DNA of 64,000 nucleotides from Flavobacteriaceae bacterium UBA6231 (GCA_002441545.1 DJWL01000005.1:7533-71532); one strand, 5' to 3'; shown: positions 3,815 to 21,183, counted from the stretch's first letter. Notes: generated from the sequence alone by a model not told the origin. A program made the numbers and translations.

Positions 3815-3870
3815 GGTGATTGATATCTTTTAAAAGTTCAACAAATTTATGGCATTTAGTTTATTTAGAA

Positions 3871-3884
3871 ATGATATAAATCAT
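3871..3884. promoter_or_regulatory. FNR-like palindrome ATGAT-ATAA-ATCAT upstream of ccsBA
   Basis: Perfect 5-4-5 inverted repeat, centred 35.5 bp from the terminal G of a TAAATTTG -7 element (3842-3849, minus strand). Confidence 0.6.
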
Positions 3885-3917
3885 AAAAATCATCTTAAAT
3901 TTTTATTTATAAATTGC

Positions 3918-4307
3918 TCATTCTTGTCTTGTCTCAAAAATTTTAAGGTATAAAAATGTACTCATCTTTCTAGCTCGTCTTTTTGCGTTTTCTGCATAAT
4001 CACCAACAAATAATTCGTCAATGGTTTCAAACCAAAGGTTTAGCCAAATGCCAAAATGCAATTGAGAAATCGAATTATTATTATTTTGATCAACTTTAAC
4101 ATGCACTTCTAATGGATTTCCTAAATATTTCGTTTTTAAAAATAAATTTGATTCCCAAAAAGTTGTTAATCTATTTAAATGCTCATCCCAATCCTTAATA
4201 GCTTCGTTAAAAAAAGGAGCTAATATTTCATTCTTTCTAACTTTATTATAAAAAGATGAAACCAACAAAAAAACATCTTCACGAGTTTTAATATCTTTTT
4301 TTTCCAT
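3918..4307 (-). CDS. Group III truncated hemoglobin
   Basis: DIKTREDVFLLVSSFYNKVR...FF...WDEHL...FW...H...HF..WL.LW pattern. ATG 4307 preferred because the track's TTG lies in a TATCTTTG promoter element (4314-4321). Confidence 0.88.
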   Translation of the reverse strand: MEKKDIKTREDVFLLVSSFYNKVRKNEILAPFFNEAIKDWDEHLNRLTTFWESNLFLKTKYLGNPLEVHVKVDQNNNNSISQLHFGIWLNLWFETIDELFVGDYAENAKRRARKMSTFLYLKIFETRQE

Positions 4308-4366
4308 ATCAAACAAAGATACATGATTAGCTTTTATATAACGTAATACTTACTTATTTTAGCATT

Positions 4367-5134
4367 ATGATTTCTGTAGTTATTTTGGGCGCTGGAAATG
4401 TTGCCACTCATTTATTTAAAGCTTTTAGTAAAGCTGACAATGTAATTGTAAATCAATGGTTTAATAGAAATTTAAAATCTATTGATTATTATAAAAACAT
4501 GGTTGAGGTAACTGACAACTTATCCAATTTAAAAGAAGCTGATGTTTATATTATAGCAGTTAGTGATGATGCTGTTGCTAAACTTTCTGCTCAACTTCCA
4601 TTTGAAAACAAGCTTGTAGTTCATACTTCTGGAAGTGTTGGTTTGTATGATTTAGATAAAAAACTTCATCGTGGTGTATTTTATCCGCTTCAAACTTTTA
4701 GTAAAGAGGCAGAAGTAAACTTTTCAAATGTGCCAATTTGTATTGAAACAGCAAGCAAAGAACACTTTAGCATATTGAAGCTTTTAGCTAAATCAATTGG
4801 AAGTACTAGTTATAGAGTTAATAGCGATCAAAGAAGTTCTTTGCATTTAGCGGCTGTATTTGTAAATAATTTTACAAATCAATTATATAGAATTGCACAC
4901 GAAATTACAGAAGCAACAAGCACTGAATTTGATATACTAAAACCCCTTATTTTAGAAACTGCCAATAAAGTTCAAACCATTTCACCATACATGGCTCAAA
5001 CTGGTCCAGCTAAAAGGAATGACAAAAAAACAATAAAAAAACATCTAAAAAAATTAGAAGGTTCACCTCATAAAGCTGTTTATGAGCTATTAACCGCATC
5101 AATACAAAAAACACATGGAAGAAAAAAGTTATAA
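4367..5134 (+). CDS. Rossmann-like + DUF2520 domain oxidoreductase
   Basis: GAGNVA nucleotide-binding motif, HTSGS, FYPLQTFS, HLAAVFVNNF, QTGPAKRND. Confidence 0.85.
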   Translation: MISVVILGAGNVATHLFKAFSKADNVIVNQWFNRNLKSIDYYKNMVEVTDNLSNLKEADVYIIAVSDDAVAKLSAQLPFENKLVVHTSGSVGLYDLDKKLHRGVFYPLQTFSKEAEVNFSNVPICIETASKEHFSILKLLAKSIGSTSYRVNSDQRSSLHLAAVFVNNFTNQLYRIAHEITEATSTEFDILKPLILETANKVQTISPYMAQTGPAKRNDKKTIKKHLKKLEGSPHKAVYELLTASIQKTHGRKKL

Positions 5135-5645
5135 AGAATACTTACAACATATCACAACTTTTATTTTAGATGTAGATGGTGTATTAACCGACAGTACTGT
5201 AACGATAACTGATGATGGAAATTTACTGAGAAAAATGAGTGTTAGAGATGGATATGCCATAAAAACTGCAACAGATTTAGGGTATAATTTCTGCATTATT
5301 ACCGGTGGTTCAAGTGAAGGTGTACGCATGCGTTTAGAAGGGTTAGGTATAAAAGATATTTATCTGGGTTCTCATAATAAAATTGAACATTTTAACGAAT
5401 ATGTTAAAAAGTATCAAATTAAACCTGAAAATGTGCTCTATATGGGTGATGATATTCCAGACTATCCTGTGATGAAATGTGTTGGATTACCTTGTTGTCC
5501 ACAAGATGCTGCACCCGAAATAAAGAATATTTCCAAATACATTTCCCATAAAAATGGTGGTTTTGGTGCCGTTAGAGATGTTATTGAACAGGTTTTAAAA
5601 GTTCAGGAAAAATGGAGTGGAAATTTTGATGCTAAGTATGATTAA
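5115..5645 (+). CDS. kdsC: KDO 8-phosphate phosphatase (HAD IIIA)
   Basis: LDVDGVLTD, DGYAI, IITGG, YMGDDIPD, GGFGAVRDVIE motifs. Confidence 0.88.
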   Translation: MEEKSYKEYLQHITTFILDVDGVLTDSTVTITDDGNLLRKMSVRDGYAIKTATDLGYNFCIITGGSSEGVRMRLEGLGIKDIYLGSHNKIEHFNEYVKKYQIKPENVLYMGDDIPDYPVMKCVGLPCCPQDAAPEIKNISKYISHKNGGFGAVRDVIEQVLKVQEKWSGNFDAKYD

Positions 5646-5648
5646 ATC

Positions 5649-6566
5649 ATGACTAGTTTTTTAAATCTTATCCGCTATAAAAACCTGTTAATGATTGCTT
5701 TAGTGCAAAGTCTTATTAAATACGGCCTTTTAGTTCCATTTGGCATAAGTACTTCTCTTGATAATTTTGAGTTTTCACTATTAGTGTTTTCAACTATTTG
5801 TATTGCAGCCGGAGGAAACATTATCAATGATATTTATGATGTTGAAACAGATGCTATCAACAAACCAGAAAAGATAATTGTTGGGAAATTAATTTCAGAA
5901 AAAACAGCTTATAACCTGTTTATCATACTTAATGTTTTAGGTGTTGGTTTAGGTTTTTTTGTTTCTTATGTCGTTGGTAAAAGTGAATTGTTTTCAATTT
6001 TTGTAATTGTATCAGCACTACTCTATGTGTATGCCAGTTATTTAAAACAAATGTTTTTAATTGGAAACATAATCATTTCTGCTTTAGTTGCCCTAAGTAT
6101 TATAATCGTTGGTATTTTTGAATTAATTCCTGCTATTACGTCTCAAAATCAAGGTATTCAATTAGCTTTTTTTAGAATATTGCTAGACTATGCATTGTTT
6201 GCTTTCATTATAAATTTAATTCGTGAAATTGTAAAAGACATTGAGGATTTTGATGGAGATTATAAATCTGGAATGCATACATTACCAATTGTTATTGGCA
6301 AGGAAAAAGCTTCAAAAGTCTTATTTCTATTATCTTTTATTCCACTAGGAACAGTAATTTATTATATTAACAGTAATCTTTACAAACAACCAATTGCTGT
6401 CATATATTTTTTGATTTTCATAATAGCTCCATTAATTTATTTAAGCATATTAATTTTTAATGCAAGAACTAAAAAGGACTTCCATGTTATTAGCAACCTT
6501 CTTAAATTAGTTATGCTCTTGGGGATGCTATCAATTTTACTATACAAGATTATTTTATTACCATAA
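5649..6566 (+). CDS. UbiA-family prenyltransferase, DGGGP-synthase-like
   Basis: NIINDIYDVETDAINKP and REIVKDIEDFDGD Asp-rich motifs; multi-TM. Confidence 0.85.
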   Translation: MTSFLNLIRYKNLLMIALVQSLIKYGLLVPFGISTSLDNFEFSLLVFSTICIAAGGNIINDIYDVETDAINKPEKIIVGKLISEKTAYNLFIILNVLGVGLGFFVSYVVGKSELFSIFVIVSALLYVYASYLKQMFLIGNIIISALVALSIIIVGIFELIPAITSQNQGIQLAFFRILLDYALFAFIINLIREIVKDIEDFDGDYKSGMHTLPIVIGKEKASKVLFLLSFIPLGTVIYYINSNLYKQPIAVIYFLIFIIAPLIYLSILIFNARTKKDFHVISNLLKLVMLLGMLSILLYKIILLP

Positions 6567-7162
6567 TGTTAAACGAAAAATTAAAAGACTACCATATTAT
6601 TTTAGCTTCTGGATCACCTAGAAGACAATTGTTTTTTAAAGAGTTAGGAGTTGATTTTGAAATTAGGTTAAAGCCTGTGGTAGAAGAATACCCAATAAGA
6701 TTGCGCCATTTTGAGATAAGTGATTACTTAGCTCAATTAAAGGCTTTGCCCTTTAAAGATGATTTAAAGGATAAAGAAATTCTTATAACAAGTGATACTA
6801 TTGTTTGGCATAACAACAAAGCTTTAGGAAAACCTATTAATGAAACTGATGCTTTCAATATGCTGAAATCAATCAGTAATGCTACACACGAAGTTATTAC
6901 ATCGGTTTGTTTTACTTCAAAAACATCGCAAAAAACTTTAAGCGATATTACCAAAGTGACTTTTAAAAATCTTACGGATGATGAAATAAATTATTATATA
7001 AAAACCTGCAAACCATTTGATAAGGCTGGAGCCTATGGCATCCAAGAATGGATTGGACAAATTGGTGTAACTAAAATTGAAGGGTCTTATTTTAATGTTA
7101 TGGGACTACCCGTACATTTAGTATATAAAGTGTTAACAGAAATTTCAACACAAAAACTATAA
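6566..7162 (+). CDS. maf: Maf-family nucleoside triphosphate pyrophosphatase
   Basis: ILASGSPRR, ITSDTIV, GKP, DKAGAYGIQ, NVMGLP. Confidence 0.93.
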   Translation: MLNEKLKDYHIILASGSPRRQLFFKELGVDFEIRLKPVVEEYPIRLRHFEISDYLAQLKALPFKDDLKDKEILITSDTIVWHNNKALGKPINETDAFNMLKSISNATHEVITSVCFTSKTSQKTLSDITKVTFKNLTDDEINYYIKTCKPFDKAGAYGIQEWIGQIGVTKIEGSYFNVMGLPVHLVYKVLTEISTQKL

Positions 7163-7198
7163 ACCAACGTATATTTACGTTAGTAAATATTTATATAT

Positions 7199-7729
7199 AT
7201 GAAAACAGCATTAGATACCTATTTTTGGGAAATAATAAACACAGTTATTCTTATATTATTTTTTATCCTTTTAAATTTTATCCTGAAAAAGGTTTTAAAA
7301 GGTGTTGGAAAAAGAAGTAATATAAATATTGCACGGGTAAAACTTATAAATAGATACATTACTGTTACCTTAATTTTAATTGCTTTATTAATTGAAGCCT
7401 TTGTGCTTGGTGCAGAACGCGATCAAATTGCTTTGGTGTTTTCATCTGTCTTTGCGGTAGTAGGTATTGCTTTATTTGCCATTTGGTCCATTTTAAGCAA
7501 TATAACATCTGGTGTTATTATGTTTTTTTCCTTTCCTTATAAAGTAGGTGATAAAATAATGATACACGATAAAGATTTTCCTTTAGAAGCCATTATTGAA
7601 GACATTGGAGCCTTTCAACTTCATTTAAGATTAGACAATGGCAACCTAGTTACCTATCCTAATAACCTCATGTTACAAAAAGCCGTCACGCTTATTCAAA
7701 AAGATGCAATTGATGAAGAATACGATTAA
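7199..7729 (+). CDS. Small-conductance mechanosensitive channel family protein
   Basis: Three TM helices, then LSNITSGVIMFFSFPYKVGDKI...YPNN. Confidence 0.85.
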   Translation: MKTALDTYFWEIINTVILILFFILLNFILKKVLKGVGKRSNINIARVKLINRYITVTLILIALLIEAFVLGAERDQIALVFSSVFAVVGIALFAIWSILSNITSGVIMFFSFPYKVGDKIMIHDKDFPLEAIIEDIGAFQLHLRLDNGNLVTYPNNLMLQKAVTLIQKDAIDEEYD

Positions 7730-7758
7730 AACGCTATATTTATAACATTAACAGTGTT

Positions 7759-8826
7759 ATGGCAAAAAATAGAACTTCAAAATACAATAAGAAAATTGGT
7801 TTAAGCCCTGGCTCCATTGTTTACACTGGAGATAAAGAAACACAAAAGCTATCCATTGAATCCTTTGATTATAACAGTGAATCTGTTGATGAAAAAACAC
7901 ACAGTCAAATTGAAGATGTTTTTCATTTTAAAACAACTAAATCTGTTAGCTGGGTAAATATTAATGGATTAAATCATGTAGATGCTATTGAAAAAATAGG
8001 TTCTCACTATAATTTACATCCGCTAACACTTGAAGACATTGTAAACACGTCACACAGACCAAAACTTGATGATTATGACAACTATGTCTTTGTTGTTTTA
8101 AAAATGCTTTATTATGATAAAGACGAACAAGTTGTTACTGAGCAAGTAAGTTTTATTTTGGGAGAAAGTTATGTGTTAAGTTTTCAAGAAGCTGAAGGCG
8201 ATGTTTTTAATACCGTTAGAGAACGCATAAGATACGCAAAAGGACGTATTAGAACGTTAGGCTCCGATTACTTATTGTACACACTAATTGATGCAGTAAC
8301 AGATCATTACTTTATAATTATTGAAAGACTGAGCAATAAAATTGAAGATCTAGAAGACAATTTATTCAATGGGTTTTCACAGGAAGAAATAAGCCAGCAG
8401 ATTCAAAATTTAAAAAGAGAAGTTCTAAAAGTTCGTCGTGCTATCTTTCCTTTACGAGAGATTATTGGTAAAATTGAAAAGAATGAAAACAATTTTATAA
8501 AAGACAAGACCATTCATTATTTTAGAGACGTTTATGATCATGTAATTCAAATTTCAGAGAATATTGAAATTTACAGAGAGATGATTTGGGGCCTTATGGA
8601 TATGTATATGACTACTATAAGCAATAAAATGAATGAAGTTATGAAAGTGCTAACTATAATTTCAACCATTTTTATTCCTCTTACATTTATGGCTGGTATC
8701 TATGGGATGAATTTTGATAATATTCCAGAACTTCATTATAAATATGCTTATTTCATTTTATGGGGCATCATGATTGTATTGTTCCTTTCCATGCTATATT
8801 ATTTCAAAAAGAAAAAATGGTTTTAA
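7759..8826 (+). CDS. corA: Magnesium/cobalt transporter CorA
   Basis: LHPLTLEDI, MNEVMKVLTI, GIYGMNF signature. Confidence 0.95.
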   Translation: MAKNRTSKYNKKIGLSPGSIVYTGDKETQKLSIESFDYNSESVDEKTHSQIEDVFHFKTTKSVSWVNINGLNHVDAIEKIGSHYNLHPLTLEDIVNTSHRPKLDDYDNYVFVVLKMLYYDKDEQVVTEQVSFILGESYVLSFQEAEGDVFNTVRERIRYAKGRIRTLGSDYLLYTLIDAVTDHYFIIIERLSNKIEDLEDNLFNGFSQEEISQQIQNLKREVLKVRRAIFPLREIIGKIEKNENNFIKDKTIHYFRDVYDHVIQISENIEIYREMIWGLMDMYMTTISNKMNEVMKVLTIISTIFIPLTFMAGIYGMNFDNIPELHYKYAYFILWGIMIVLFLSMLYYFKKKKWF

Positions 8827-8912
8827 TTTCCTTATATAATTCGTTAAAGAAACATTAAAAGCAAGGATTTGGCTAGTATCTTTTTCTATATTTGGTTTAT
8901 TCCAAACAAAAG

Positions 8913-11444
8913 ATGATGCAAAAAACAGTACTTTATCTATTAATATTATTCCTTTTTCCCTGCTTTAATCAAGCGCAACAACCCAAAAAACCTAATGCTT
9001 CAGAAATATATGAATCTATTCAAAAATTAAATTTTTTAGGTTCTGTAATGTATATTGCAGCACATCCAGATGATGAAAATACACGCCTTATCTCCTACTT
9101 ATCTAACAAAATAAAAGCGAGAACAGCTTATTTAGCTTTAACACGAGGTGATGGAGGACAAAATCTTATAGGGCCAGAAATTGGAGAGTTATTAGGTGTT
9201 ATAAGAACTGAAGAATTATTAGAAGCCCGAAAAATTGATGGTGGAGAACAGTTTTTTACAAGGGCCAACGACTTTGGTTTTTCTAAACATCCAGATGAAA
9301 CTTTGACTATATGGAACAAAAATGAGGTGTTAAGCGATGTTGTTTTAGCCATCAGAAAATTTCAGCCAGATATTATTATCAATCGATTTGACCACAGAAG
9401 TCCAGGAACTACACATGGACATCATACCAGTTCAGCCATGTTGAGTGTAGAAGCGTTTGATTTGGCAAATAAAGCTTCCGTTTATCCTGAACAACTTAAA
9501 CAAACCAGTTTATGGCAACCAAAAAAACAATTTTTCAATACGTCATGGTGGTTTTATGGCAGTCAAGAAAACTTTGATAAAGCTGACAAAACAAATTTGT
9601 TAAGTATTGACACAGGAGTTTATTTTCCTTTAAAAGGATTAAGTAATCCAGAAATTGCAGCTTTAAGCAGAAGTAAACATAAATCACAAGGTTTTGGTAG
9701 TACAGGAAGTCGTGGCGAAGAATTAGAATATATAGAACTAATAAATGGCGATTTACCAATTGATAAATCAAATATTTTTGATGGCATTGATACCACTTGG
9801 AATCGAGTTAAAGGTGGAAATGTTATCGGCAAAATTATTTCAAAAGTTGAAACAGATTTTGATTTCACAAATCCATCAGCATCGATTCCACAACTAGCTG
9901 AAGCCTATAAATTAATCCAAAAACTAGAAGATACACATTGGAAAACTATTAAATCTGAAGAAATTAAAAATATTATTGCTTCATGTGCTGGATTGTATTT
10001 AGAAGCGGTTGCAGATACAAATCATGCAACAAAAAATTCTGAAGTAAATATATCCATAGAGATGATTAATAGAAGTGATACCGATATTGTTTTTACAGGA
10101 TTAACTTTAAAAGATAACAGCGAAAAAGCATATAGCCAACTTGAATTAAAAAACAACAAAAAAGAGCAATTAAAAAACACCATTGTGATTTCTAAAAACC
10201 AAGAACCAACAACTCCATATTGGTTAACAAGTAAAGGAACTTTAGGAATGTATAAAGTAACATATCCAAATTTGATTGGCTTGCCAGAAACTCCTATTGT
10301 TTATACTGCGACTTTTGAATTAGAAATAGAAAATACCCCAATTGAATTTACAAAACCAATAGTTTATAAAACCAATAATCCTGTAAAAGGTGAAGTATAC
10401 AAACCTTTTGTTATCATACCAGAAGCTTCTGCTAAAATTGCTGAAAAAGTCATCATATTTGAAAATGACAAACAAAAAGAAATTCCTGTTATTGTTAAGG
10501 CTGGTGAAGATCAATTAGAGGGCTATGTTACAATTGCCCATCCAAAGGATTGGAATGTTTATCCAGAAAAACAAACCATTTCCATTGCACATATGGGAGA
10601 AGAGCAAACTGTTGTTTTTACCATTATTCCTCCAAAAAATCAAAGTGAAGGACTCATAACTCCTATGGTTCATATTGGTGATGACATTTACACAAGAGAG
10701 CTTATTGAAATAGCTTATGACCATATTCCATTACAAACCGTTTTATTACCAAGTGAAAGCAAAGTAGTAAGATTGAATATTCAAAAGAAAGGTGAAAATA
10801 TAGCTTATATTGAAGGTGCTGGTGATGTATTACCAGAGAGTTTAAAACAAATAGGTTATAATGTCATTACAATCGCTCCAAAAGATATAAATGCAGAAAC
10901 ATTAAGCAGATTTGATGCTGTTGTAGTTGGAATAAGAGCTTATAATACCATTGAAGATTTAAAATATAAACAACAAATATTATTTGATTTTGTTGAAGAA
11001 GGTGGGAATATGATAGTGCAATACAATACTAATTCCAGATTGCAAGTTGATAGATTAGCGCCTTTTGATTTAACACTTTCTAGAGATAGAGTGACCGATG
11101 AAAATTCTGAAGTACGCTTTTTAAACCCAAACCATTCTTTACTAAATTATCCAAATAAAATCACTCAAAAAGATTTTGAAGGATGGACCCAAGAACGTGG
11201 ATTATATTTTCCTGATAAATGGTCAAGCGAGTTCACTCCTATTCTATCAATGAACGATAAAGGTGAATCTCCAAAAGATGGCAGCTTATTAGTTACAAAA
11301 TATGGTAAAGGTTATTACATATATACCGGATTAAGCTTTTTTAGAGAATTCCCTGAAGGCGTCGCTGGCGCATACAGATTGTTTGCAAATATGCTTTCAA
11401 TTGGAAAAGAAGACATTAAGATTGAAGCAAAACTAAATGATTAA
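8913..11444 (+). CDS. Exported PIG-L/LmbE-family de-N-acetylase with C-terminal class-I-GATase-like domain
   Basis: Signal peptide; AAHPDDEN and HGHH metal motifs. ATG 8913 preferred because the track's TTG lies in TATATTTG (8887-8894). Confidence 0.85.
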   Translation: MMQKTVLYLLILFLFPCFNQAQQPKKPNASEIYESIQKLNFLGSVMYIAAHPDDENTRLISYLSNKIKARTAYLALTRGDGGQNLIGPEIGELLGVIRTEELLEARKIDGGEQFFTRANDFGFSKHPDETLTIWNKNEVLSDVVLAIRKFQPDIIINRFDHRSPGTTHGHHTSSAMLSVEAFDLANKASVYPEQLKQTSLWQPKKQFFNTSWWFYGSQENFDKADKTNLLSIDTGVYFPLKGLSNPEIAALSRSKHKSQGFGSTGSRGEELEYIELINGDLPIDKSNIFDGIDTTWNRVKGGNVIGKIISKVETDFDFTNPSASIPQLAEAYKLIQKLEDTHWKTIKSEEIKNIIASCAGLYLEAVADTNHATKNSEVNISIEMINRSDTDIVFTGLTLKDNSEKAYSQLELKNNKKEQLKNTIVISKNQEPTTPYWLTSKGTLGMYKVTYPNLIGLPETPIVYTATFELEIENTPIEFTKPIVYKTNNPVKGEVYKPFVIIPEASAKIAEKVIIFENDKQKEIPVIVKAGEDQLEGYVTIAHPKDWNVYPEKQTISIAHMGEEQTVVFTIIPPKNQSEGLITPMVHIGDDIYTRELIEIAYDHIPLQTVLLPSESKVVRLNIQKKGENIAYIEGAGDVLPESLKQIGYNVITIAPKDINAETLSRFDAVVVGIRAYNTIEDLKYKQQILFDFVEEGGNMIVQYNTNSRLQVDRLAPFDLTLSRDRVTDENSEVRFLNPNHSLLNYPNKITQKDFEGWTQERGLYFPDKWSSEFTPILSMNDKGESPKDGSLLVTKYGKGYYIYTGLSFFREFPEGVAGAYRLFANMLSIGKEDIKIEAKLND

Positions 11445-11446
11445 TA

Positions 11447-11557
11447 ATGACAGAAGAAAAGCAACCTAAACAACCTTGGCTTAAATTGTATTCTATCATT
11501 TTAATAGCCAATCTTGTTTATATTATTGCATTTTACTTAATCATGAAATCCTTTTAA
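11447..11557 (+). CDS. 36-aa single-TM small protein (missed by ORF track)
   Basis: MTEEKQPKQPWLKLYSIILIANLVYIIAFYLIMKSF; exactly fills the gap, 2 nt from each neighbouring gene. Confidence 0.75.
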   Translation: MTEEKQPKQPWLKLYSIILIANLVYIIAFYLIMKSF

Positions 11558-11559
11558 TT

Positions 11560-13275: not shown

Positions 13276-14239
13276 AACCATCCGTTGGGGTATAATTGGT
13301 TTAGGAAGCATCGCTAATAAATTTGCGAAAGATTTATTAACCGTTAAAGATGCCCAATTATATGCTGTAGCTTCTCGTTCTCTAGAAAAAGCTGATGAAT
13401 TTGCATCTGCTTACAATGCAGTTATAGCTTATAGCAGATATGAAGATTTAGTTGATGACAAGAATATTGACGCTGTATATATTGCTACTCCTCATGCATT
13501 ACATAAAGAAAACACTCTTTTATGTCTAAAAAAAGGTATTGCTGTTTTATGCGAAAAGCCTTTTGCTATGAATTCTTCTGAAGTTGAAGAAATGATTACT
13601 TGTGCAAAAGCGAAAAATACATTGCTTATGGAAGCTCTTTGGACTTATTTTCTTCCTCATTATCAATATGTATTGCAAGTATTGAAAAACAAAACTTATG
13701 GAGACATTTTAAAGCTAGAAGCTGATTTTGGGTTTTTTCGTGAATTTAATAATGATGCCAGATTATTTAATAAATCATTAGGCGGCGGAAGTCTTTTAGA
13801 TATAGGCATCTACCCCATTTTTGCAGCTTTATCAACTTTAGAAAAACCTATCAACATTGAAGCTAATACCACATTTTTTGATAATGGAGCAGATTCAACA
13901 TGCAACATGACCTTTAACTATAAAAAAAATGTAAAGGCATATTTAAAAAGTTCCTTATTAGAATCACTTCCTACTGAAGCTATTTTTTATTGTGAAAAGG
14001 CAATCATAAAAGTTAATACCATGTTTCATATGCCAACAACAGTTTCAATAATTATTGATGGCAAAGAAGATATAAAAGATTTTGGATACAATACCATTGG
14101 TTATAATTACGAAATCATGCATTTTAATGAACTTATCCAACTAGGAAAAACAGAAAGTCCAATCATGTCATTTGAGTTTAGTAACCAATTAATTTCGATT
14201 TTAGATTCTGTTAGAAACTTGATAAAATTAGAATATTGA
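13253..14239 (+). CDS. Gfo/Idh/MocA oxidoreductase
   Basis: WGIIGLGSIA, YIATPH, LCEKPF, GGSLLDIGIY; ATG 13253 preferred. Confidence 0.9.
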   Translation: MTKQSQHKTIRWGIIGLGSIANKFAKDLLTVKDAQLYAVASRSLEKADEFASAYNAVIAYSRYEDLVDDKNIDAVYIATPHALHKENTLLCLKKGIAVLCEKPFAMNSSEVEEMITCAKAKNTLLMEALWTYFLPHYQYVLQVLKNKTYGDILKLEADFGFFREFNNDARLFNKSLGGGSLLDIGIYPIFAALSTLEKPINIEANTTFFDNGADSTCNMTFNYKKNVKAYLKSSLLESLPTEAIFYCEKAIIKVNTMFHMPTTVSIIIDGKEDIKDFGYNTIGYNYEIMHFNELIQLGKTESPIMSFEFSNQLISILDSVRNLIKLEY

Positions 14240-14377
14240 TTTTTTAAAAATAGTTTAAATTATTTTTTGTGATTGTGAAAGGAACTAATAAGTACTCTTT
14301 ACGGTTTATCTCTAAAAATTGTTAAATTATAACAGACATCATTTTAAGATATTTTTTATTTTTAGAAGTTGAAGATT

Positions 14378-14407
14378 AAAAAAAGCAACCAAATAGGTTG
14401 CTTTTTT
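14378..14407. terminator. Bidirectional intrinsic terminator
   Basis: AAAAAAAGCAACC-AAATA-GGTTGCTTTTTT between convergent genes. Confidence 0.8.
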
Positions 14408-14432
14408 ACTAAATAAATTTATAACATTCAAC

Positions 14433-15281
14433 TTACATAGCTCCCCATTCTTTTAGAGAGTCTTTGTTCATCTTAACGTAATCGTCATTTCCAGCTTCTT
14501 CTGCTCCAGCTAATGATTTCTTTGCAGATTCGATAGCTGCTTCTTTATTACCTGTTTTTGCATAAAGTAAAGACTGTTGTCTCAATTGCCAATAAGCTGG
14601 TTTTTCAGTCAAAGACATGGCCTTATCCATCCACTCTTGAGCTTGACTTAAATCTTTTCCTTCACTTAAGTAATATACAGCAGCAGCATAATAATCATTA
14701 GCTGTTGGAGTACTATTCATAACATCATTTATACTGGCTAAAACTTTATTATCTGTTGGAACATTAAATTTCACACCCACGTAAGTACTTTCCCAAAGTA
14801 TGCCTAAGGTTGCTCCTCCACTACTTAAATCATCGATATCCATGGTGAAAGTTTCAATGGTCACAGGCAAAGTGTTTACTCCTACAGTTGTTTTTGCAAC
14901 CACTTTGGTATCGTCCAACTCTTGAGGAGCTCCCCAATTGTCTGTTGTTGCATAAAATATAACATCCCATGATGTCTCACCTGGAATAGTATAAATAGCA
15001 TAAGAACCTGCTTTTAGAGTTTGACCGTCAACGGACACATCATCACTAAAAGTTATCATGGTGTTTTTATTGGCTCCAGTTCTCCATACTTTTCCAAAAG
15101 GTACCAAGTCTCCAAATATTTTACGTCCTCTCATACTAGGTCTAGAGTATTCTAAAGTTACGTTGGTCAATCCAACCACTTGTTCTACTTTACTGGTAGG
15201 ACTGGGTTGTGGTGTCTTAATCTGTGAGTATCCGGTAAGTGATACAGCAAGAACAAAGAAAGATAATACGAGTTTTTTCAT
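14433..15281 (-). CDS. DUF2911 domain exported protein with C-terminal TPR-like helices
   Basis: Signal peptide; PQPSP, YSRP, LVPFGKVWRTGAN. Confidence 0.88.
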   Translation of the reverse strand: MKKLVLSFFVLAVSLTGYSQIKTPQPSPTSKVEQVVGLTNVTLEYSRPSMRGRKIFGDLVPFGKVWRTGANKNTMITFSDDVSVDGQTLKAGSYAIYTIPGETSWDVIFYATTDNWGAPQELDDTKVVAKTTVGVNTLPVTIETFTMDIDDLSSGGATLGILWESTYVGVKFNVPTDNKVLASINDVMNSTPTANDYYAAAVYYLSEGKDLSQAQEWMDKAMSLTEKPAYWQLRQQSLLYAKTGNKEAAIESAKKSLAGAEEAGNDDYVKMNKDSLKEWGAM

Positions 15282-15484
15282 GTTTAAGTTGATTTAATTA
15301 TTAGCATAAATTTAAATTATAAAATTAAGGAATGAAATCACTTATAATTGTTAATAAAAGCCTAAAATGATAAAATTTGTTATTATATCAATATTTGAAT
15401 AGTTCTTTTAATAGAATACAACATTTAAAAAATAATTTGATTTATTAACGCCTTAATTAGAAACTTGTCTAAAAAATAAAAGAA

Positions 15485-17542
15485 CTACTTTTCTATTCTT
15501 ATTCTAACGTCAACAGCAACAATATCTTTTTCTAATGCCAAAAGTGGATTTATATCTAATTCAGAAATTTCTGGAGCCATACAAAGTAGTTGAGATATTT
15601 TTACAATGATGTCTGCATACTTTTTAATGTCTATACCTTTTTGACCTCTTATTCCTTTTAATATGGGATAGGCTCTTAAATTTGAAATCATTTTTAAAGC
15701 ATCAGACTCTGTGATTGGTACCATGGAAGTGCTTATATCTTTTAATACTTCAACAAAAATGCCTCCTAGTCCACATAATATGATGTGTGGATAATTAGTT
15801 TCCCTTTTTGCTCCAATAAATAGTTCCATCCCCTCAATCATTGGTTGAATCAGCACAGATTTCGCACCATGAATCTGCATTAACTTTTCAAAACTATCAT
15901 GCAATTCTCTGTCATTTGAAATATTTAAAATAACGCCTCCAACATCTGATTTATGCAATGGACCCTCTACTTTTAATACAACTGGGTATGTTAGTGTCTC
16001 TGAAACTTTGTTAAGTTCTGCTTTTGTTTTGGCATATTTTTGAAATGCAAATTGTACACCTGCATAATCTAATAGTTTAAAAGCTGTTTCAGACGACATG
16101 TATCCATTAGGAAGAGCATCTATCAGCTTTCTTACTCTTTTGAATGATTTAAATTCTAAAGTCTGAGATTTATCTCGTACTATACTTTGATTAGATACCT
16201 TAGCCAAAGCCTTTCCAAATAAAACTTCATCATGAAAAGCAATATTTCCTTTTGATATAAACTCATTTATTTCATCATGAACATTAATAACTGATGGCAA
16301 TATGGTGTAAATTGGCTTTTTTGAAGTCTTTATTTTTTTATTTAAAACTTCATACACATCATAAACCGGCTTTAATCCAGGGCTTCCAAAAATGACTGCT
16401 ATAGCATCAATCTCATCAAATTTATTGTCGCAATAATCAATAATGGTTTCTAATTGTTGAGCAGTTCCAGTAGCTAAAAAATCAATGGGATTAGCAACAG
16501 AAGACCCATCAAATAATTCTTTTAATAATGTTTTACAATGTGTTCCTTTTAATGAAGGCACTTGCAATCCGTTTTTTGACAAGACATCAGTTAGCATGAC
16601 CGCTGGACCTCCGGCATGTGTAATAATGGCTATATTTTTTCCCTTAGATTCCCTTTGCAATAAAATCCCCGCCACTGTAATCAGTTCGTTTCTGCCATAA
16701 CAACGTATAATTCCAGCCTTTTTAAATAAGGCGTCAATAAAAACATCTGAATTGGCTATAGCTCCTGTATGAGATGACGCCGCTTTATTGCCCGCTTCTG
16801 TACTACCAGCTTTAATTGCGGCAATTTTACAGCCTTTACTTAGTAATGAAGCGGTATGTTTTAAAAACTTAAGCGGATTTTTAACACTTTCAATATAAAG
16901 AAGTTTTACTTTAGGGCTTTTATCTTTATCAAAAGATATATCTAAATACTCTAATACCTCCTCTACTCCTATTTGAGCACTATTTCCTACCGTATAAACG
17001 CTTGAAAAGGTAAGACCCATACCAACAGCTGCCTCTATAATAAATACGGCAGTGGCTCCTGAACCAGATATAAAATCAACTCCAGAATCACTTAATTTAG
17101 GAATTGGTGTTGTAAAAACACCCGTGTAAAACTGATTAATTAAGCCTATATTATTAGGTCCTAAGAGGCTACCTCCCACTTTATCAATCAGTTTGACTAT
17201 TTCTTTTTCTAACCTTGCACCGTTTTCATCCTTTTCACTAAAACCTGCAGAGAAAATAATAAACCCTTTTGTGTTCTTTTGTTTAGTCAATATTCTTATT
17301 GGCTCTAAAATAAATTGTGCTGGTATTGCAATAATTGCCAAATCAACATTTGGAATTTCCTGAACATTTTTAAAAGATTTAACACCTTGTACAATTTCCT
17401 GTTTAGGATTAACAACAAATAAATCTCCTTTAAATTGATTCTCAATCAAGTTTTTTAAAACTCTTCCTCCAGGGCTGTGAATATTATCAGAACCTCCTAT
17501 TACAACAATACTTTTTGGTTGAACTAGTTTTGGGTGAAGCAT
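15485..17542 (-). CDS. ADP-forming acyl-CoA synthetase (acetate--CoA ligase family, fused alpha/beta)
   Basis: CoA-binding N-terminus, LGPNNIG, SSHTGA with phospho-His, NPIDF, C-terminal ATP-grasp (HKSDVGGV, ELDINPL). No GNAT domain, so not a Pat acetyltransferase. Confidence 0.88.
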   Translation of the reverse strand: MLHPKLVQPKSIVVIGGSDNIHSPGGRVLKNLIENQFKGDLFVVNPKQEIVQGVKSFKNVQEIPNVDLAIIAIPAQFILEPIRILTKQKNTKGFIIFSAGFSEKDENGARLEKEIVKLIDKVGGSLLGPNNIGLINQFYTGVFTTPIPKLSDSGVDFISGSGATAVFIIEAAVGMGLTFSSVYTVGNSAQIGVEEVLEYLDISFDKDKSPKVKLLYIESVKNPLKFLKHTASLLSKGCKIAAIKAGSTEAGNKAASSHTGAIANSDVFIDALFKKAGIIRCYGRNELITVAGILLQRESKGKNIAIITHAGGPAVMLTDVLSKNGLQVPSLKGTHCKTLLKELFDGSSVANPIDFLATGTAQQLETIIDYCDNKFDEIDAIAVIFGSPGLKPVYDVYEVLNKKIKTSKKPIYTILPSVINVHDEINEFISKGNIAFHDEVLFGKALAKVSNQSIVRDKSQTLEFKSFKRVRKLIDALPNGYMSSETAFKLLDYAGVQFAFQKYAKTKAELNKVSETLTYPVVLKVEGPLHKSDVGGVILNISNDRELHDSFEKLMQIHGAKSVLIQPMIEGMELFIGAKRETNYPHIILCGLGGIFVEVLKDISTSMVPITESDALKMISNLRAYPILKGIRGQKGIDIKKYADIIVKISQLLCMAPEISELDINPLLALEKDIVAVDVRIRIEK

Positions 17543-17595
17543 AACTAAAAATTGCTTTAATAACGTAAAGTAACTAATTTAATATAGGATTTTAG

Positions 17596-17609
17596 CTGAC
17601 ATTTATCAC
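17596..17609. promoter_or_regulatory. FNR-like box (C)TGAC-ATTT-ATCA(C) in the divergent ACD/aminotransferase promoter region
   Basis: Same TGAY-N4-RTCA core as at 3871 and 21170; outer bases do not match. Confidence 0.5.
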
Positions 17610-17663
17610 AATCTATTTTATTAAAATTTTGTTATTTTGAATAGACTAAAAACATCATGAATT

Positions 17664-18881
17664 ATGTATGCATTTTCAAACGCAGTTAATTCTAGGCATT
17701 CTGAAGACATAAAACTATTAATGTCCCAAGCATCTGGAAAGAGTTTGATTTCATTTGCAGGAGGCATGCCAAATAATGATTTATTTCCTGTAAAACAAAT
17801 TGATGATATTTATAATTCACTGCCAGACAATATAAAAAAATTATGTTTCCAATATGGGCCAACTTCTGGTTATCCACCATTAATCCAATCACTAAAAGAT
17901 CATTTAAACAATAAAGGATTACCTGTCCAAGACAATAAAATTTTAATAACTACTGGTTCATTACAAGCTATTTCAATTATAACTCAAGAGTTTGTTAATG
18001 AAGGTGATATTATATTAACTGAAAATCCATGCTTTGTTGGAGCACTGTCTGTATTTGAAACATTTGGAGCTAAAATAGAAAGCATCCCTATAGACAATCA
18101 TGGGATAGATATAAATGCATTAAAGAATAAAATTGCCACTTTAGAAAGAACGCCTAAATTTTTATATGTAACCCCTAATTATCATAATCCCGCGGGAATT
18201 ATTTACACACTCGAAAGAAAAAAAGAACTTTTAGAAACATTATCTGGTACAGGAATTATTTTACTTGAAGATGATGCGTATAGTGATTTGTATTTTAATG
18301 AAAATGAAAAATATCTAACCAAATCCATGAAGTCATTTGGGGTTAAGGATGTCGAAATCATTTATACTGGTTCCTTCTCAAAAATATTGGGTCCAGGTTT
18401 TAGATTAGGTTATATGCTTTCTTCACTAGAAATATTTGAAAAAGCTGAAACCGTAAAACAAGCCTTGGATGCCTGTACTTCTAATTTTATGCAAATATTA
18501 GCCAATGAATTTTTAGCACAGCATAAACTAGAATCTTATTTAAAATTCTTAAGAATTGAATATTTGGAAAGGAAAAATTTACTCCAACAGAGTTTAGAAA
18601 AATATATGCCAAAAGAAGTTACTTGGAATGAACCAAAAGGCGGTTTTTACATCTGGCTTAAGTTACCATCTCATATTAAATCAACAGACATATTCAAAGA
18701 AAGTGTTAAAGATGATGTTGTGTTTGTAACCGGAAGAACTTTTGATCCTGACAGTAAAAAGGATGACAGATTACGACTCTCGTTTTCAAATATGCCAAAA
18801 GAAAGCATTGAAAAAGGAGTCATAATTTTGGCTAAGGCTGTAGAAAAAGTACTTAAAAATGTTAAAGTTAAAAATACTTAA
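17664..18881 (+). CDS. PLP-dependent class I aminotransferase (aromatic amino acid/2-aminoadipate type)
   Basis: ISFAGGMP, YVTPNYHNPAG, EDDAY, GSFSKILGPGFRLG. No N-terminal wHTH, so not a MocR regulator. Confidence 0.88.
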   Translation: MYAFSNAVNSRHSEDIKLLMSQASGKSLISFAGGMPNNDLFPVKQIDDIYNSLPDNIKKLCFQYGPTSGYPPLIQSLKDHLNNKGLPVQDNKILITTGSLQAISIITQEFVNEGDIILTENPCFVGALSVFETFGAKIESIPIDNHGIDINALKNKIATLERTPKFLYVTPNYHNPAGIIYTLERKKELLETLSGTGIILLEDDAYSDLYFNENEKYLTKSMKSFGVKDVEIIYTGSFSKILGPGFRLGYMLSSLEIFEKAETVKQALDACTSNFMQILANEFLAQHKLESYLKFLRIEYLERKNLLQQSLEKYMPKEVTWNEPKGGFYIWLKLPSHIKSTDIFKESVKDDVVFVTGRTFDPDSKKDDRLRLSFSNMPKESIEKGVIILAKAVEKVLKNVKVKNT

Positions 18882-18894
18882 TTAATATATTTGA

Positions 18895-19494
18895 TTAAAT
18901 GTTGGTAGCTAAATTGGTGATTTCTTTGGCTATTTTTTTCCCCTCAAAAAAGGCTTTTAAGTTTAAGCTTATTATTTTGTCGCTTTTATGCTGAAACAGT
19001 TTTTTAATGGCATCCAAAAGACTTTCTTCTGATAACGGAATAATAGAAGCCGCAGCACCAAGCAATACCATATTTGTAACTTTTGAATTACCTATTTTTT
19101 TAGCAATTTCTGTAGCATTTATAATAATATGATACGGATGCTTTTTAATTTGTTTGAATAAATCATTTTTATCTGGATAGTTATCCGTATTAATAAATGG
19201 GTGAGAATCTGTAACCAACCAGCCATATTTATTCAAAAAAGGTGTGTATCTCAATAATTCCATAGGTTCTACAGATAATATTAAATCCGCTTTCCCTTCA
19301 GGAATGAGATCAGAAAAAATTTGTTTATCAGATATTCGAACATGGCATTGTACAGCACCACCACGTTGACTCATACCATGAACTTCAGATTGTTTTACAA
19401 ACAAATTTTCACTTAAAGCAGCCGTATCTAATACTGCAGCAATGGTTAAAATACCTTGTCCGCCAACGCCAGATAATATAATATTTGTTTTCAT
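18895..19494 (-). CDS. iorB: Indolepyruvate:ferredoxin oxidoreductase beta subunit
   Basis: GVGGQGILT, SEVHGMSQRGGAV..HVR, NMVLLGA. Confidence 0.92.
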   Translation of the reverse strand: MKTNIILSGVGGQGILTIAAVLDTAALSENLFVKQSEVHGMSQRGGAVQCHVRISDKQIFSDLIPEGKADLILSVEPMELLRYTPFLNKYGWLVTDSHPFINTDNYPDKNDLFKQIKKHPYHIIINATEIAKKIGNSKVTNMVLLGAAASIIPLSEESLLDAIKKLFQHKSDKIISLNLKAFFEGKKIAKEITNLATNI

Positions 19495-19503
19495 GCTTTT
19501 ATT

Positions 19504-21117
19504 TTAGCTTAATGAAGCGATTTTAGCTTTTATTTCCTCTTTTTTATCTCTCGATAATCTAACACAAGGTCTTTCTGAAATAATAACTGAAACTCCTTTA
19601 TATTTCAATTCATTTCTTAATAACTCAACATTTTGTTCATGATTTTTATTTAAAGGTATCATGGTTTTTAAATGGTCTGGATGCACTCCAATACCTAAAC
19701 AAATTTTATGCAACCTTCCAACAGCAGATGATTCTTGTGCTCCAGTCATGGCAATTGCTGAATTATCTGAAATGATTACTGTTATTGGAGAATTTTCATA
19801 AACTGCATCTAACAATCCCGTCATTCCTGAATGCGTAAAAGTTGAATCACCTATTACAGCAATGGCGTTTTCCAGTCCGGCATCAGCAGCTCCTTTAGCC
19901 ATAGTTATAGAAGCTCCCATATCAATTAGCGTGTTTACAGTTTTTAATGGAGGTAAAGCTCCTAATGCATAGCAACCAATATCTCCAAAGACGTTTTTAT
20001 TTCCTATTTCTGGAATTAACTCATTAATAGTATTAAATAAATCGGTATGACCGCAACCTTCACAAAGCTGTGGCGGTCTGCCAGATACTATTTCGGGAAT
20101 GGATTTAGAAATATTTTGAAAAATGCCTAAAGATTTACCAACAGTATTTGGATTAAGCTCACCTGTTAATGGAATATCTCCAGTTAATTTACCTTTAATT
20201 TTATCATTTTTATTAAAATAGTCATGTAGTAGTTCCTCAACTAAAGGATATCCTTCTTCAACTACAATTATTTTATCGCAATGCTTATAAAGTTTTTTTA
20301 TTTTTTCTTTAGGTAATGGATATTGAGAAATTTTCAAAATAGAATAAAAAGAAACATCATCACCAATATTTTCCATAACATAGTTATAAGCAATACCGCA
20401 AGCAATAATTCCAACATCATTATGTTGACTCAATTTTAAATCATTTAAAGAAGAACTTTCTGAAAGCTTAATTAAAATAGCCTTTTTATTAACTAATTTG
20501 TCAAATTGCTTTCTAGCATTCATTGGTAAAAGTGCAAACCTAGACGTATCAGTTGGTAATTGCATCACATTCTGAGCTCTTCTTTCTCGCAATTCAATAC
20601 CTGCACGCGAATGAGACAAACGAGTCACCATTCTTACCAAAACAGGTAGCTTTAATTCTTCAGAAAGATCAAAGGCATAATGCATAATATCATAAGCCTC
20701 TTGCTGATTTGAAGGCTCTAATATTGGAATCATGGCAAATTTTCCATAAAACCTTGAATCTTGTTCATTTTGTGAAGAGTGCATAGAAGGGTCATCAGCC
20801 ACCACAACTACAAGTCCACCATTAATTCCTGAAACAGACATATTCATAAAAACATCTGAAGCTACATTTAACCCCACATGCTTCATCACAACCAAGGCTC
20901 TTAAACCAGTATATGACATACCAAGAGCAGACTCCATAGCGGTTTTCTCGTTAACAGACCAGGTAGCATGAATTTTCAATTCCCTTGCAAGTTTTGACCT
21001 TTGAATATATTCAGTAATTTCAGTAGAAGGGGTTCCAGGATAAGCATAAACTCCCGATAATCCAGCATCAATGCTACCTTGAGCCAGTGCTTCATTCCCT
21101 AACAATAAACTTTTCAT
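19504..21117 (-). CDS. iorA: Indolepyruvate:ferredoxin oxidoreductase alpha subunit (short form)
   Basis: LLGNEA, YPGTPSTE, MKHVGLNVA, HSSQNEQDSR, CEGCGH, GDIGCY, GDSTFTHSG TPP motif. Confidence 0.92.
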   Translation of the reverse strand: MKSLLLGNEALAQGSIDAGLSGVYAYPGTPSTEITEYIQRSKLARELKIHATWSVNEKTAMESALGMSYTGLRALVVMKHVGLNVASDVFMNMSVSGINGGLVVVVADDPSMHSSQNEQDSRFYGKFAMIPILEPSNQQEAYDIMHYAFDLSEELKLPVLVRMVTRLSHSRAGIELRERRAQNVMQLPTDTSRFALLPMNARKQFDKLVNKKAILIKLSESSSLNDLKLSQHNDVGIIACGIAYNYVMENIGDDVSFYSILKISQYPLPKEKIKKLYKHCDKIIVVEEGYPLVEELLHDYFNKNDKIKGKLTGDIPLTGELNPNTVGKSLGIFQNISKSIPEIVSGRPPQLCEGCGHTDLFNTINELIPEIGNKNVFGDIGCYALGALPPLKTVNTLIDMGASITMAKGAADAGLENAIAVIGDSTFTHSGMTGLLDAVYENSPITVIISDNSAIAMTGAQESSAVGRLHKICLGIGVHPDHLKTMIPLNKNHEQNVELLRNELKYKGVSVIISERPCVRLSRDKKEEIKAKIASLS

Positions 21118-21169
21118 ATGATACTTCTATTTCTGTTAACAAATTTAAATGTAACACTATTAATAGAGT

Positions 21170-21183
21170 ATGATTTATGTCAT
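21170..21183. promoter_or_regulatory. FNR-like box ATGAT-TTAT-GTCAT upstream of iorA
   Basis: Centred 36.5 bp from the terminal G of TAAATTTG (21140-21147, minus strand). Confidence 0.6.

Follow-up and report, generated by a model that had tools for sequence, protein, structure and literature searches.

A phased TGAY-N4-RTCA palindrome and a probable low-oxygen regulon in Flavobacteriaceae

The FNR protein of Escherichia coli and its relatives (FnrN, FnrL and Anr) are the closest described counterparts of the regulatory element considered here, a palindrome with the sequence TGAY-N4-RTCA that occurs three times in a 64,000-nucleotide stretch of DNA from Flavobacteriaceae bacterium UBA6231. 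The whole of this stretch, referred to below as the window, corresponds to C90:7533-71532, on one contig of a 3.62-Mb, 203-contig genome that has 31.5% GC and is 94.6% complete. The likeness to FNR comprises a TGAT-N4-ATCA inverted-repeat core centred at −41.5; a regulator of the Crp/Fnr fold with an N-terminal CxxC and a central Cys that align with C20, C23 and C122 of FNR, encoded beside the cbb3 oxidase (cco/fix) gene cluster; and a regulon that includes cbb3 oxidase, haem synthesis, hydrogenase, molybdenum cofactor (Moco), universal stress protein (Usp) and small heat-shock genes. The FixL-FixJ-FixK cascade of rhizobia and Caulobacter is similar in having a FixL-like haem-PAS kinase upstream of a Crp-type module and a FixK-type box before cbb3 and stress genes. 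Within the same phylum, Cur (BT4338, also known as MalR) of Bacteroides thetaiotaomicron is likewise a global Crp-family activator with an N4-spaced palindrome 5' of a −7 box, and has the translation factor EF-G2 (fusA2) as a target.

In the window, TGAY-N4-RTCA cores are read at 3872-3883 upstream of ccsBA, at 17597-17608 between the genes for an ADP-forming acyl-CoA synthetase (ACD) and an aminotransferase, and at 21171-21182 upstream of iorA. The original prediction, made from the window's sequence, attributed them to a low-oxygen regulon run by one Crp/Fnr protein. Our analysis makes it highly probable that (A/C)TGAY-N4-RTCAT is a flavobacterial FNR/FixK box, bound by Crp/Fnr dimers for class II activation from −41.5, with oxygen limitation as the most likely signal. 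The box is predicted to stand at one fixed position in a regulon of ~40-60 promoters in this flavobacterium.

A palindrome in fixed phase with the sigma-A box

The distance from the centre of the palindrome to the start codon shows a sharp peak at 55-66 bp, and alignment of 43 sites on the palindrome reveals a single further conserved block, T-A-n-n-T-T-T-(A>G), at +30 to +37. A search of all upstream regions for TGAY-N4-RTCA followed by n nucleotides (nt) and TAnnTTT found 34 promoters with n=23 and between 0 and 4 with every other n from 10 to 44; the phase, measured from the palindrome centre to the first T of the sigma-A box TAnnTTT(G/A), is 29.5 bp. The proximal half-site alone occurs 71 times at the phased offset, compared with ~30 times at neighbouring phases, and 34 of the ~40 excess copies are accompanied by the distal half. 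Because the distal half is usually present and is as conserved as the proximal half, the element is the whole inverted repeat, which suits a dimeric factor better than a one-sided sigma −35 element. In several cases one site is placed halfway between divergent genes, ~60 bp from either start codon, and the ACD/aminotransferase site of the window is one of these.

In a genome-wide transcription start site (TSS) map of Flavobacterium psychrophilum, a member of the same family, the sigma-A box TAnnTTTG spans −12 to −5 (PMC9723704). Since the palindrome centre lies 29.5 bp 5' of the first T of this box, and that T is at −12, the centre falls at −41.5, which is the class II activator position. The same study offers a mapped example in THC0290_0041, a gene of the cytochrome c551/c552 family whose TSS appears in the supplementary table with a 61-nt promoter string (PMC9723704). 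With the TSS index in these strings calibrated on a leaderless control row, the THC0290_0041 promoter carries TGATATTTATCA centred exactly at −41.5 and TACTTTTG at −12 to −5. The authors place this gene in their cluster C52, described as hypoxia-induced, together with the cbb3 operon, HemN and a monohaem cytochrome c; the paper makes no mention of Fnr, Crp or the palindrome, and names no regulator or motif for the hypoxic induction of cbb3 (PMC9723704).

A repressor operator, at which a dimer of the Crp/Fnr or another type covers the −33 region and blocks RNA polymerase until it is released, would also account for a box that overlaps the −33 region, and Crp/Fnr proteins are capable of repression; the box lies 42-45 bp from the start codon in most orthologues of the FNR-like regulator described below, which could reflect negative autoregulation. 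This explanation is nevertheless very improbable. Repression needs no single-base phasing to the −7 box (34 promoters with the preferred spacing against 0-4 with any other) and is ill-suited to a symmetric site equidistant from two divergent promoters, and cbb3 in the related species is induced and not constitutive. Furthermore, the −7 boxes of the composite promoters end in G in 7 of 29 cases, compared with 577 of 1239 among all box matches, and are therefore sub-consensus, as is typical of activator-dependent promoters.

Across the genome TGAY-N4-RTCA occurs 321 times, as base composition predicts, and its distribution is non-random. Intergenic DNA, which makes up 10% of the genome, holds 86 copies and coding DNA holds 235 (0.228 vs 0.073 per kb), an enrichment of 3.1-fold that reaches 12.5-fold for the 14-mer ATGAY-N4-RTCAT. 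Enrichment is seen with the N4 spacer only, with N2, N3, N5 and N6 spacers and five permuted half-site controls giving intergenic/coding ratios of 0.5-1.25. When intergenic pieces were shuffled 100 times with dinucleotides preserved, the 81 intergenic copies of the 12-mer compared with 14.8±3.7 expected (5.5-fold), and the 30 copies of the 14-mer with 1.5±1.3 (20-fold). The original prediction, which would have fallen had the motif been no more frequent than in shuffled intergenic DNA, thus withstood this comparison. The outer flank of the 43 aligned sites is A in 23, C in 12 and T in 6, and so departs from the outer T/A of the FNR consensus.

These shuffles and spacer controls, together with the conservation across genera described below, exclude a chance origin of the box at the genome scale. 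The idea that the box serves an alternative sigma factor as its upstream element, or that it arises by chance in AT-rich intergenic DNA, could draw on a spacing as rigid as that of a sigma −35/−10 pair and on the 31.5% GC of the genome, but is scarcely credible: the downstream element is an ordinary sigma-A box, TAnnTTT(G/A), and the upstream element is a full inverted repeat with equally conserved halves that works in both orientations.

The three palindromes of the window have the sequences and positions originally described, and Pfam matches confirm the identities of the associated genes. The first, ATGATATAAATCAT (3871-3884; core 3872-3883, centre 3877.5), lies 5' of ccsBA (626-3814, minus strand), which encodes a ResB-CcsA fusion of 1062 residues for system II cytochrome c maturation (PF05140 and PF01578). 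Its sigma-A −7 box, TAAATTTG (3842-3849, minus strand), begins 28.5 bp from the palindrome centre, predicting a centre at −40.5, a TSS at ~3837 and a leader of ~23 nt. The second, CTGACATTTATCAC (17596-17609; core 17597-17608), is common to the divergent genes for ACD (15485-17542, minus strand; PF13380, PF13607 and PF13549) and a class I/II aminotransferase (17664-18881, plus strand; PF00155), with 60.5 and 61.5 bp to the two start codons. It is flanked by −7-like boxes for the aminotransferase (TTATTTTG, 17632-17639, plus strand, one mismatch) and for ACD (TTACTTTA, 17566-17573, minus strand, one mismatch to TAnnTTTA), each of which begins at +30 from the box centre on its own strand, the composite phase found genome-wide. 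The third, ATGATTTATGTCAT (21170-21183; core 21171-21182, centre 21176.5), precedes iorA (19504-21117) and iorB (18895-19494), which together (18895-21117, minus strand) encode an indolepyruvate:ferredoxin oxidoreductase (IOR; PF01855, PF02775 and PF01558). Here the first T of the −7 box (21140-21147, minus strand) is 29.5 bp from the palindrome centre, predicting a centre at −41.5, a TSS at ~21135 and a leader of ~18 nt.

The −7 elements at ccsBA and iorA are indeed identical, being TAAATTTG at 3849 to 3842 and at 21147 to 21140, and the originally reported distances of 35.5 and 36.5 bp are correct as counted between the palindrome centre and the G that ends the −7 box. All predicted TSS positions in the window rest on the box geometry of PMC9723704. 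With TAnnTTTG at −12 to −5, the predicted centres are −41.5 at iorA and in both directions at the ACD/aminotransferase site, and −40.5 at ccsBA, in keeping with the class II geometry of the original prediction. The iorA box has the standard spacing, and the ccsBA box is one base nearer (22 nt), in a minor class of 4 promoters genome-wide. A perfect phased box, TATGATATTTGTCATA, is also found at a phosphoenolpyruvate carboxykinase (PEPCK) gene ~1.95 kb to the left of the window start (C90:5580). Metagenomes with the sequence of this genome come solely from hydrocarbon, groundwater, sediment and landfill samples, and all are of DNA.

Conservation and content of the predicted regulon

The phased composite is present in 59 of 61 Flavobacteriaceae genera, typically with 10-60 occurrences per genome. 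In total, 1152 composites have the phased 23-nt spacer, compared with 128 with a 26-nt spacer, and a reversed-pattern control gives 0-6 per genome. A survey of the phylum found the composite concentrated in the family and order; a small number of further families in the class have it at moderate levels, and other classes do not rise above the control. Of all targets, the ccoS-ccoNO promoter is the best conserved, with one phased site in 28 of 29 genera. The eight genera that lack ccoN have a median of 2 sites, compared with 18 in the rest (Mann-Whitney p=1.5e-5). The cbb3 operon (ccoS-ccoNO) is among the box targets in the present genome as well, so that the expectation of cbb3 as a co-hit was borne out both here and across the 28 genera.

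Conservation in orthologous promoters, which the original prediction also called for, differs in depth among the three sites of the window. iorA, and with it the IOR/ACD/aminotransferase module, is present in 5 of the 61 sampled genera and is thus a rare accessory pathway in the family. All four iorA orthologues have exactly one palindrome within 4.6 kb, located 5' of iorA with TAnnTT(T/A) at +30 and with a diverged spacer. The ACD/aminotransferase site is kept in all three other genera with the divergent arrangement, and a genus that lacks the aminotransferase also lacks the site. At ccsBA, the box is kept in 11 of 11 readable species of the same genus as TATGAY-N4-TATCATT, with the same 28.5-bp phase. 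Allowing one mismatch, the palindrome is found at ccsBA in none of 29 other genera, where the TAAATTTG box itself is conserved; this distribution rules out the ccsBA site as an ancient member of the regulon and indicates that cytochrome c maturation joined it within the genus. The ccsBA promoters of the 29 other genera have a conserved TTTAACA ~22 nt 5' of the TAAATTTG box, and in the genus of the window the TTTAACA of ccsBA lies further upstream, with the palindrome in its place (window 3815-3917). The proposal that the box specifically links ccsBA to IOR therefore has to be given up: both are simply members of a regulon of ~40-60 promoters, and the ccsBA site is a genus-specific gain.

Target identities were taken from NCBIfam and Pfam matches of the genes downstream of the boxes. 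Targets in respiration and electron flow comprise the ccoN/O fusion gene, preceded by a CcoS-like open reading frame (ORF) and a CcoI-type P-type ATPase, along with hemA, nuoA and pntA. To the same group belong a rhodanese, a monohaem cytochrome c, the small subunit of a [NiFe]-hydrogenase, MoeA at the head of an operon for Moco, and a PhsA-like molybdopterin reductase whose gene diverges from that of a multihaem cytochrome c. Carbon metabolism is represented by KorA, iorA, PEPCK, an alpha-carbonic anhydrase, pyruvate phosphate dikinase (PPDK) and citrate synthase, and translation by a Bacteroidota-type EF-G2 (C60:36875-38977) with the box TGACTTAAGTCA at the standard phase. EF-G2 is also the top target of Cur in Bacteroides, where the half-site is different, and this target has apparently been kept while its regulator changed. 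Stress targets are several tandem Usp proteins, Hsp20, a DnaJ-like protein, BON, CBS and M50-CBS proteins, a peroxiredoxin, a B12-dependent ribonucleotide reductase (RNR), a phosphoribosyltransferase, an ABC1 kinase and a D-2-hydroxyacid dehydrogenase.

A 50-kb island (C88:40000-93000) contains 18 boxes and brings together many Usp genes with those for Hsp20, the B12-dependent RNR, the phosphoribosyltransferase, CBS and BON proteins, the peroxiredoxin and the ABC1 kinase. It is centred on an operon for a PAS-LOV-PAS histidine kinase, a receiver-Crp fusion and a Usp protein. Its gene content is strikingly like that of the mycobacterial DosR regulon. A comparable island apparently exists in other genera (for example, G052:C13). 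Two sub-classes of box can be distinguished in the genome: promoters in the island have TGAT-N4-ATCATT, with the proximal G in 0 of 15, and respiratory and metabolic promoters prefer GTCA (16 of 22; Fisher p=6e-6), which hints at overlapping but distinct specificities.

Candidate regulators and the signal

The genome encodes seven Crp/Fnr paralogues above the Pfam cut-off, four of which have the recognition helix (T/S)-E-x-x-I-R. These four, one in the window and three on other contigs, are candidate readers of the box. The FNR-like regulator at C187:5525-6202 is divergent from ccoI-ccoS-ccoNO, with one box common to both; the small CcoS-like ORF that separates the box from ccoNO is broken by a scaffold gap (a run of N at C187:8765-8775). 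The regulator's match to PF13545 (61.5 bits) and full-length alignment to the Aliivibrio FNR structure 5cvr (E=5e-21) place it in the Crp/Fnr fold, and it scores 90 bits against the NCBIfam Fnr subfamily model, which has a cut-off of 228. Residues C4, C7 and C106 align with the FNR cluster ligands C20, C23 and C122. All six Cys of the protein are retained without exception across 73 orthologues (75-100% identity), among them C29, C53 and C59, one of which could serve as a fourth cluster ligand. The recognition helix, TES(T/A)IR, has Ile where FNR has Ser212, and so differs from the E-x-x-S-R of FNR. The protein is 100% identical to one from Gaetbulibacter sp. M235 and 90-92% identical to those of Yeosuana species. 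Across the family, 43 of 61 genera have the cbb3-linked FNR-like regulator, which with few exceptions lies 3-5 kb from ccoN (syntenic in ~40 genera), and 59 of the 73 orthologues have the box at their own promoter. In most orthologues no more than 42-45 bp separate the box centre from the start codon of the regulator, and a start at +41.5 would imply either a leaderless or near-leaderless transcript or negative autoregulation.

FNR Ser212 is said to read the outer T of TTGAT in CRP/FNR specificity-swap work, and Ile at that position together with an outer base of A or C is consistent with such a role. A local system on contig C76 (C76:4400-9250) provides a counterpart. Four to five promoters there have canonical TTGATTTnAATCAAGAAAGTA boxes, and among them is the gene for a 189-residue Crp-like protein with the helix TPETLSRYR. 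This segment is a separate local regulon that retains both the Ser of the FNR helix (E-T-L-S-R) and the outer T of the box, and its five TTGATTTnAATCAAG sites were accordingly left out of the regulon described here. By eye, the small box-bearing genes on C76 resemble those for an amidohydrolase, a cupin, a glyoxalase-like protein and a deaminase.

The paralogue in the window (41313-42065, minus strand) combines the E-x-x-I-R helix with the canonical FNR Cys pattern, C21-x2-C24-x4-C29 and C123. However, it is unlikely to be the main reader, because true orthologues occur in ~8 of 61 genera. The two remaining candidates are fusions of Response_reg, cNMP_binding and HTH_Crp_2 domains, each encoded 3' of a PAS histidine kinase and beside box-bearing Usp clusters, and one of the two kinase-fusion operons has the box at its own promoter. 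The kinase on contig C113 (C113:26150-27391; L165:6150-7391, plus strand) has a single PAS domain whose top 13 PDB hits are the haem-PAS domains of FixL and DosP (best E=1.5e-13), with the proximal haem-ligating His aligned, and this domain is predicted to be FixL-like and haem-binding. The kinase of the C88 island (L162:17522-19453, minus strand) carries the LOV-type sequence LNHSCRFLQG at residues 192-201, with the photoactive Cys, and scores 151 bits against the YtvA-family model, below the cut-off of 250; it may feed a blue-light or flavin-redox input into the box. No curated family and no solved structure covers the receiver-Crp fusion.

Of the 61 genera, 32 have the fusion, and of the 12 that are cbb3-positive but have no FNR-like regulator, 11 do. 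The median number of sites is 2 in the 7 genera with neither regulator, 12 in the 22 with the FNR-like regulator only, 14 in the 11 with the fusion only and 33 in the 21 with both. Single regulators were rejected as the sole reader: the FNR-like protein is missing from 12 cbb3-positive, site-rich genera, and the paralogue with canonical Cys occurs in ~8 genera. Because the site counts are accounted for solely by the combination of the FNR-like protein and the fusion, the box appears to have no fewer than two types of reader. The low-oxygen part of the original prediction is supported, although as a conclusion from gene content, sensor domains and the transcriptome of a related species, and its single Crp/Fnr protein is replaced by at least two types.

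The same operator and transcription factor family could instead answer to energy or carbon limitation, or to light or redox stress, by analogy with Cur (BT4338) and with general stress pathways headed by LOV kinases. EF-G2, a hallmark target of Cur in B. thetaiotaomicron (PMC6989115), has the box here; PEPCK, PPDK, citrate synthase, Usp, Hsp20 and the DnaJ-like gene would suit starvation; the kinase of the C88 island has the LOV signature NHSCRFLQG; and a meta-regulon study from 2021 assumed the Crp/Fnr homologues of Flavobacteriales to be carbon sensors (PMC8510549). We consider a signal other than oxygen unlikely, though less so than the repressor or sigma-factor explanations. cbb3 is the most conserved target (28 of 29 genera), and oxygen limitation induces it in F. 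psychrophilum together with a cytochrome c gene that bears the box. Moreover, site numbers collapse in genomes without cbb3, the C113 kinase resembles FixL and has the haem His, three of the FNR cluster Cys are present in the cbb3-linked regulator, and the TGTT half-site of Cur differs from TGAY. Cur itself was rejected as reader of the box, since its published half-site is TGTT (PMC6989115) where TGAY is found here, so that the box departs from the Cur consensus TATGTTnTAnAACATA.

From the observed motif, phase, conservation, target identities, co-occurrence with regulators and sensor-domain homologies, we infer binding, activation rather than repression, and the assignment of regulators to sites; the oxygen response is deduced from regulon content, sensor domains and the transcriptome of a related species. 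The indirectness of these steps weighs against an oxygen-responsive FNR/FixK box, as do several individual results. The canonical TTGAT-N4-ATCAA is not enriched, with 6 intergenic copies (1.6-fold). A test for the −33 element found TTG at −33 in 14% of composite promoters and 14% of ordinary box matches, which in an AT-rich genome says nothing about activator dependence. hemN, the other co-hit that had been expected, did not materialize, with no match to PF06969 in a genome that is 94.6% complete and in which its absence is thus unproven. The regulator at C187:5525-6202 has Asn at the position of FNR C29, and so is missing the fourth canonical cluster ligand. The association of site count with regulator complement is strong (Kruskal-Wallis p=1e-7; Spearman 0.75, p=2e-12; 0.70 per Mb) but ignores kinship among the genera. 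The two sub-classes of box do not match the two regulator types cleanly, with 7 of 16 sites still of the GTCA type in a genus that has the fusion only (G037). Finally, the LOV-like partner kinase, along with EF-G2, PEPCK, PPDK and citrate synthase, may mean that part of the regulon answers to light, redox or energy limitation.

Mechanism and comparison with described systems

In the mechanism we favour, a dimer of the Crp/Fnr family would bind the box centred 41.5 bp 5' of the start site, with its promoter-proximal half-site abutting the usual place of the −33 element, and would bring in sigma-A RNA polymerase at a −7 box, TAnnTTT(A>G), that falls somewhat short of the consensus. Class II activation would in this way have been transplanted onto the −33/−7 promoter type of Bacteroidetes. 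At symmetric sites such as that between ACD and the aminotransferase, one box could drive two divergent promoters with starts ~83 bp apart. The readers are most likely two types with the same E-x-x-I-R helix, the Cys-rich FNR-like protein and the receiver-Crp fusions, which oxygen limitation would switch on through an Fe-S or thiol sensor in the former and a FixL-like two-component system in the latter. The regulon would then supply high-affinity respiration and its cofactors (ccoI, ccoS-ccoNO, ccsBA, cytochromes c, hemA and Moco), alternative electron flow ([NiFe]-hydrogenase, the PhsA-like reductase with its multihaem cytochrome, nuo and pntA), oxygen-sensitive or fermentative carbon metabolism (IorAB, ACD, aminotransferase, KorAB, PEPCK, carbonic anhydrase and PPDK), and a dormancy-like stress set (Usp, Hsp20, B12-dependent RNR, CBS, BON and EF-G2). 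The broader proposition is that oxygen sensing in Flavobacteriaceae, and in certain other Bacteroidia, relies on a compressed FixL pathway, with FixJ and FixK functions in one protein, plus a non-canonical Fe-S FNR-like protein, both converging on one rigidly phased class II box that is adapted to the unusual sigma-A promoters of the phylum; for this the arguments seem to us evenly balanced.

The rule TGAY-N4-RTCA, 23 nt, TAnnTTT leads one to expect regulons for low oxygen and stress in the majority of the family's genera, and it would explain how oxygen-sensitive ferredoxin oxidoreductases (IOR and KOR) coexist with aerobic respiration. Preservation of the class II geometry (−41.5) despite the −33/−7 elements of Bacteroidetes sigma-A bears on how activators contact a divergent polymerase. 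The receiver-Crp fusion with its FixL-like kinase is an uncharacterised signalling architecture and, if the proposal is true, the fusion would represent a new class of response regulator, in which a Crp protein is under the control of phosphorylation instead of a ligand. The regulon would likewise be the first oxygen regulon described for the ecologically dominant Flavobacteriaceae, DosR-like dormancy island included. Full-text literature searches, which do not cover subscription journals, found no description of an oxygen-responsive transcription factor, box or regulon for Flavobacteriaceae. The novelty lies in the motif rule, in how rigidly the motif is phased on Bacteroidetes promoters, in its reach across the family and in the pairing of receiver-Crp fusions with FixL-like kinases; the FNR/FixK concept itself was to be expected.

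The described systems also differ from the box and its predicted readers. Cur recognizes the consensus TATGTTnTAnAACATA, with the half-site TGTT, and governs carbohydrate utilisation in response to carbon limitation with no link to cbb3. DosR (DevR), the partner of DosS/DosT in mycobacteria, with OsdR in Streptomyces, is a regulator of the NarL/LuxR type with an unrelated operator in a different phylum. The likeness of its regulon to the C88 island lies in the combination of Usp, Hsp20, B12-dependent RNR, phosphoribosyltransferase and CBS genes under a haem/PAS- or GAF-type kinase. In the FixL-FixJ-FixK cascade, a separate FixJ, with a receiver and a LuxR-type helix-turn-helix (HTH), activates a separate FixK. 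Here, a single polypeptide with receiver, cNMP-like and HTH_Crp domains stands for both FixJ and FixK, with one transcriptional step fewer, and there is a second, paralogous system with a LOV-like kinase. Compared with FNR, the flank of the box is A or C and not T, the half-sites may be TGAC/GTCA, the helix is E-x-x-I-R and not E-x-x-S-R, the C29 ligand is lacking and three further Cys do not vary, the Bacteroidetes sigma-A −7 box TAnnTTTG takes the place of a −10 hexamer in the promoter, and the spacing is near-invariant. The box therefore appears to work like those of FNR and FixK, and to be non-canonical in its outer consensus base, in the E-x-x-S-R helix and in the fourth cysteine of the cluster.

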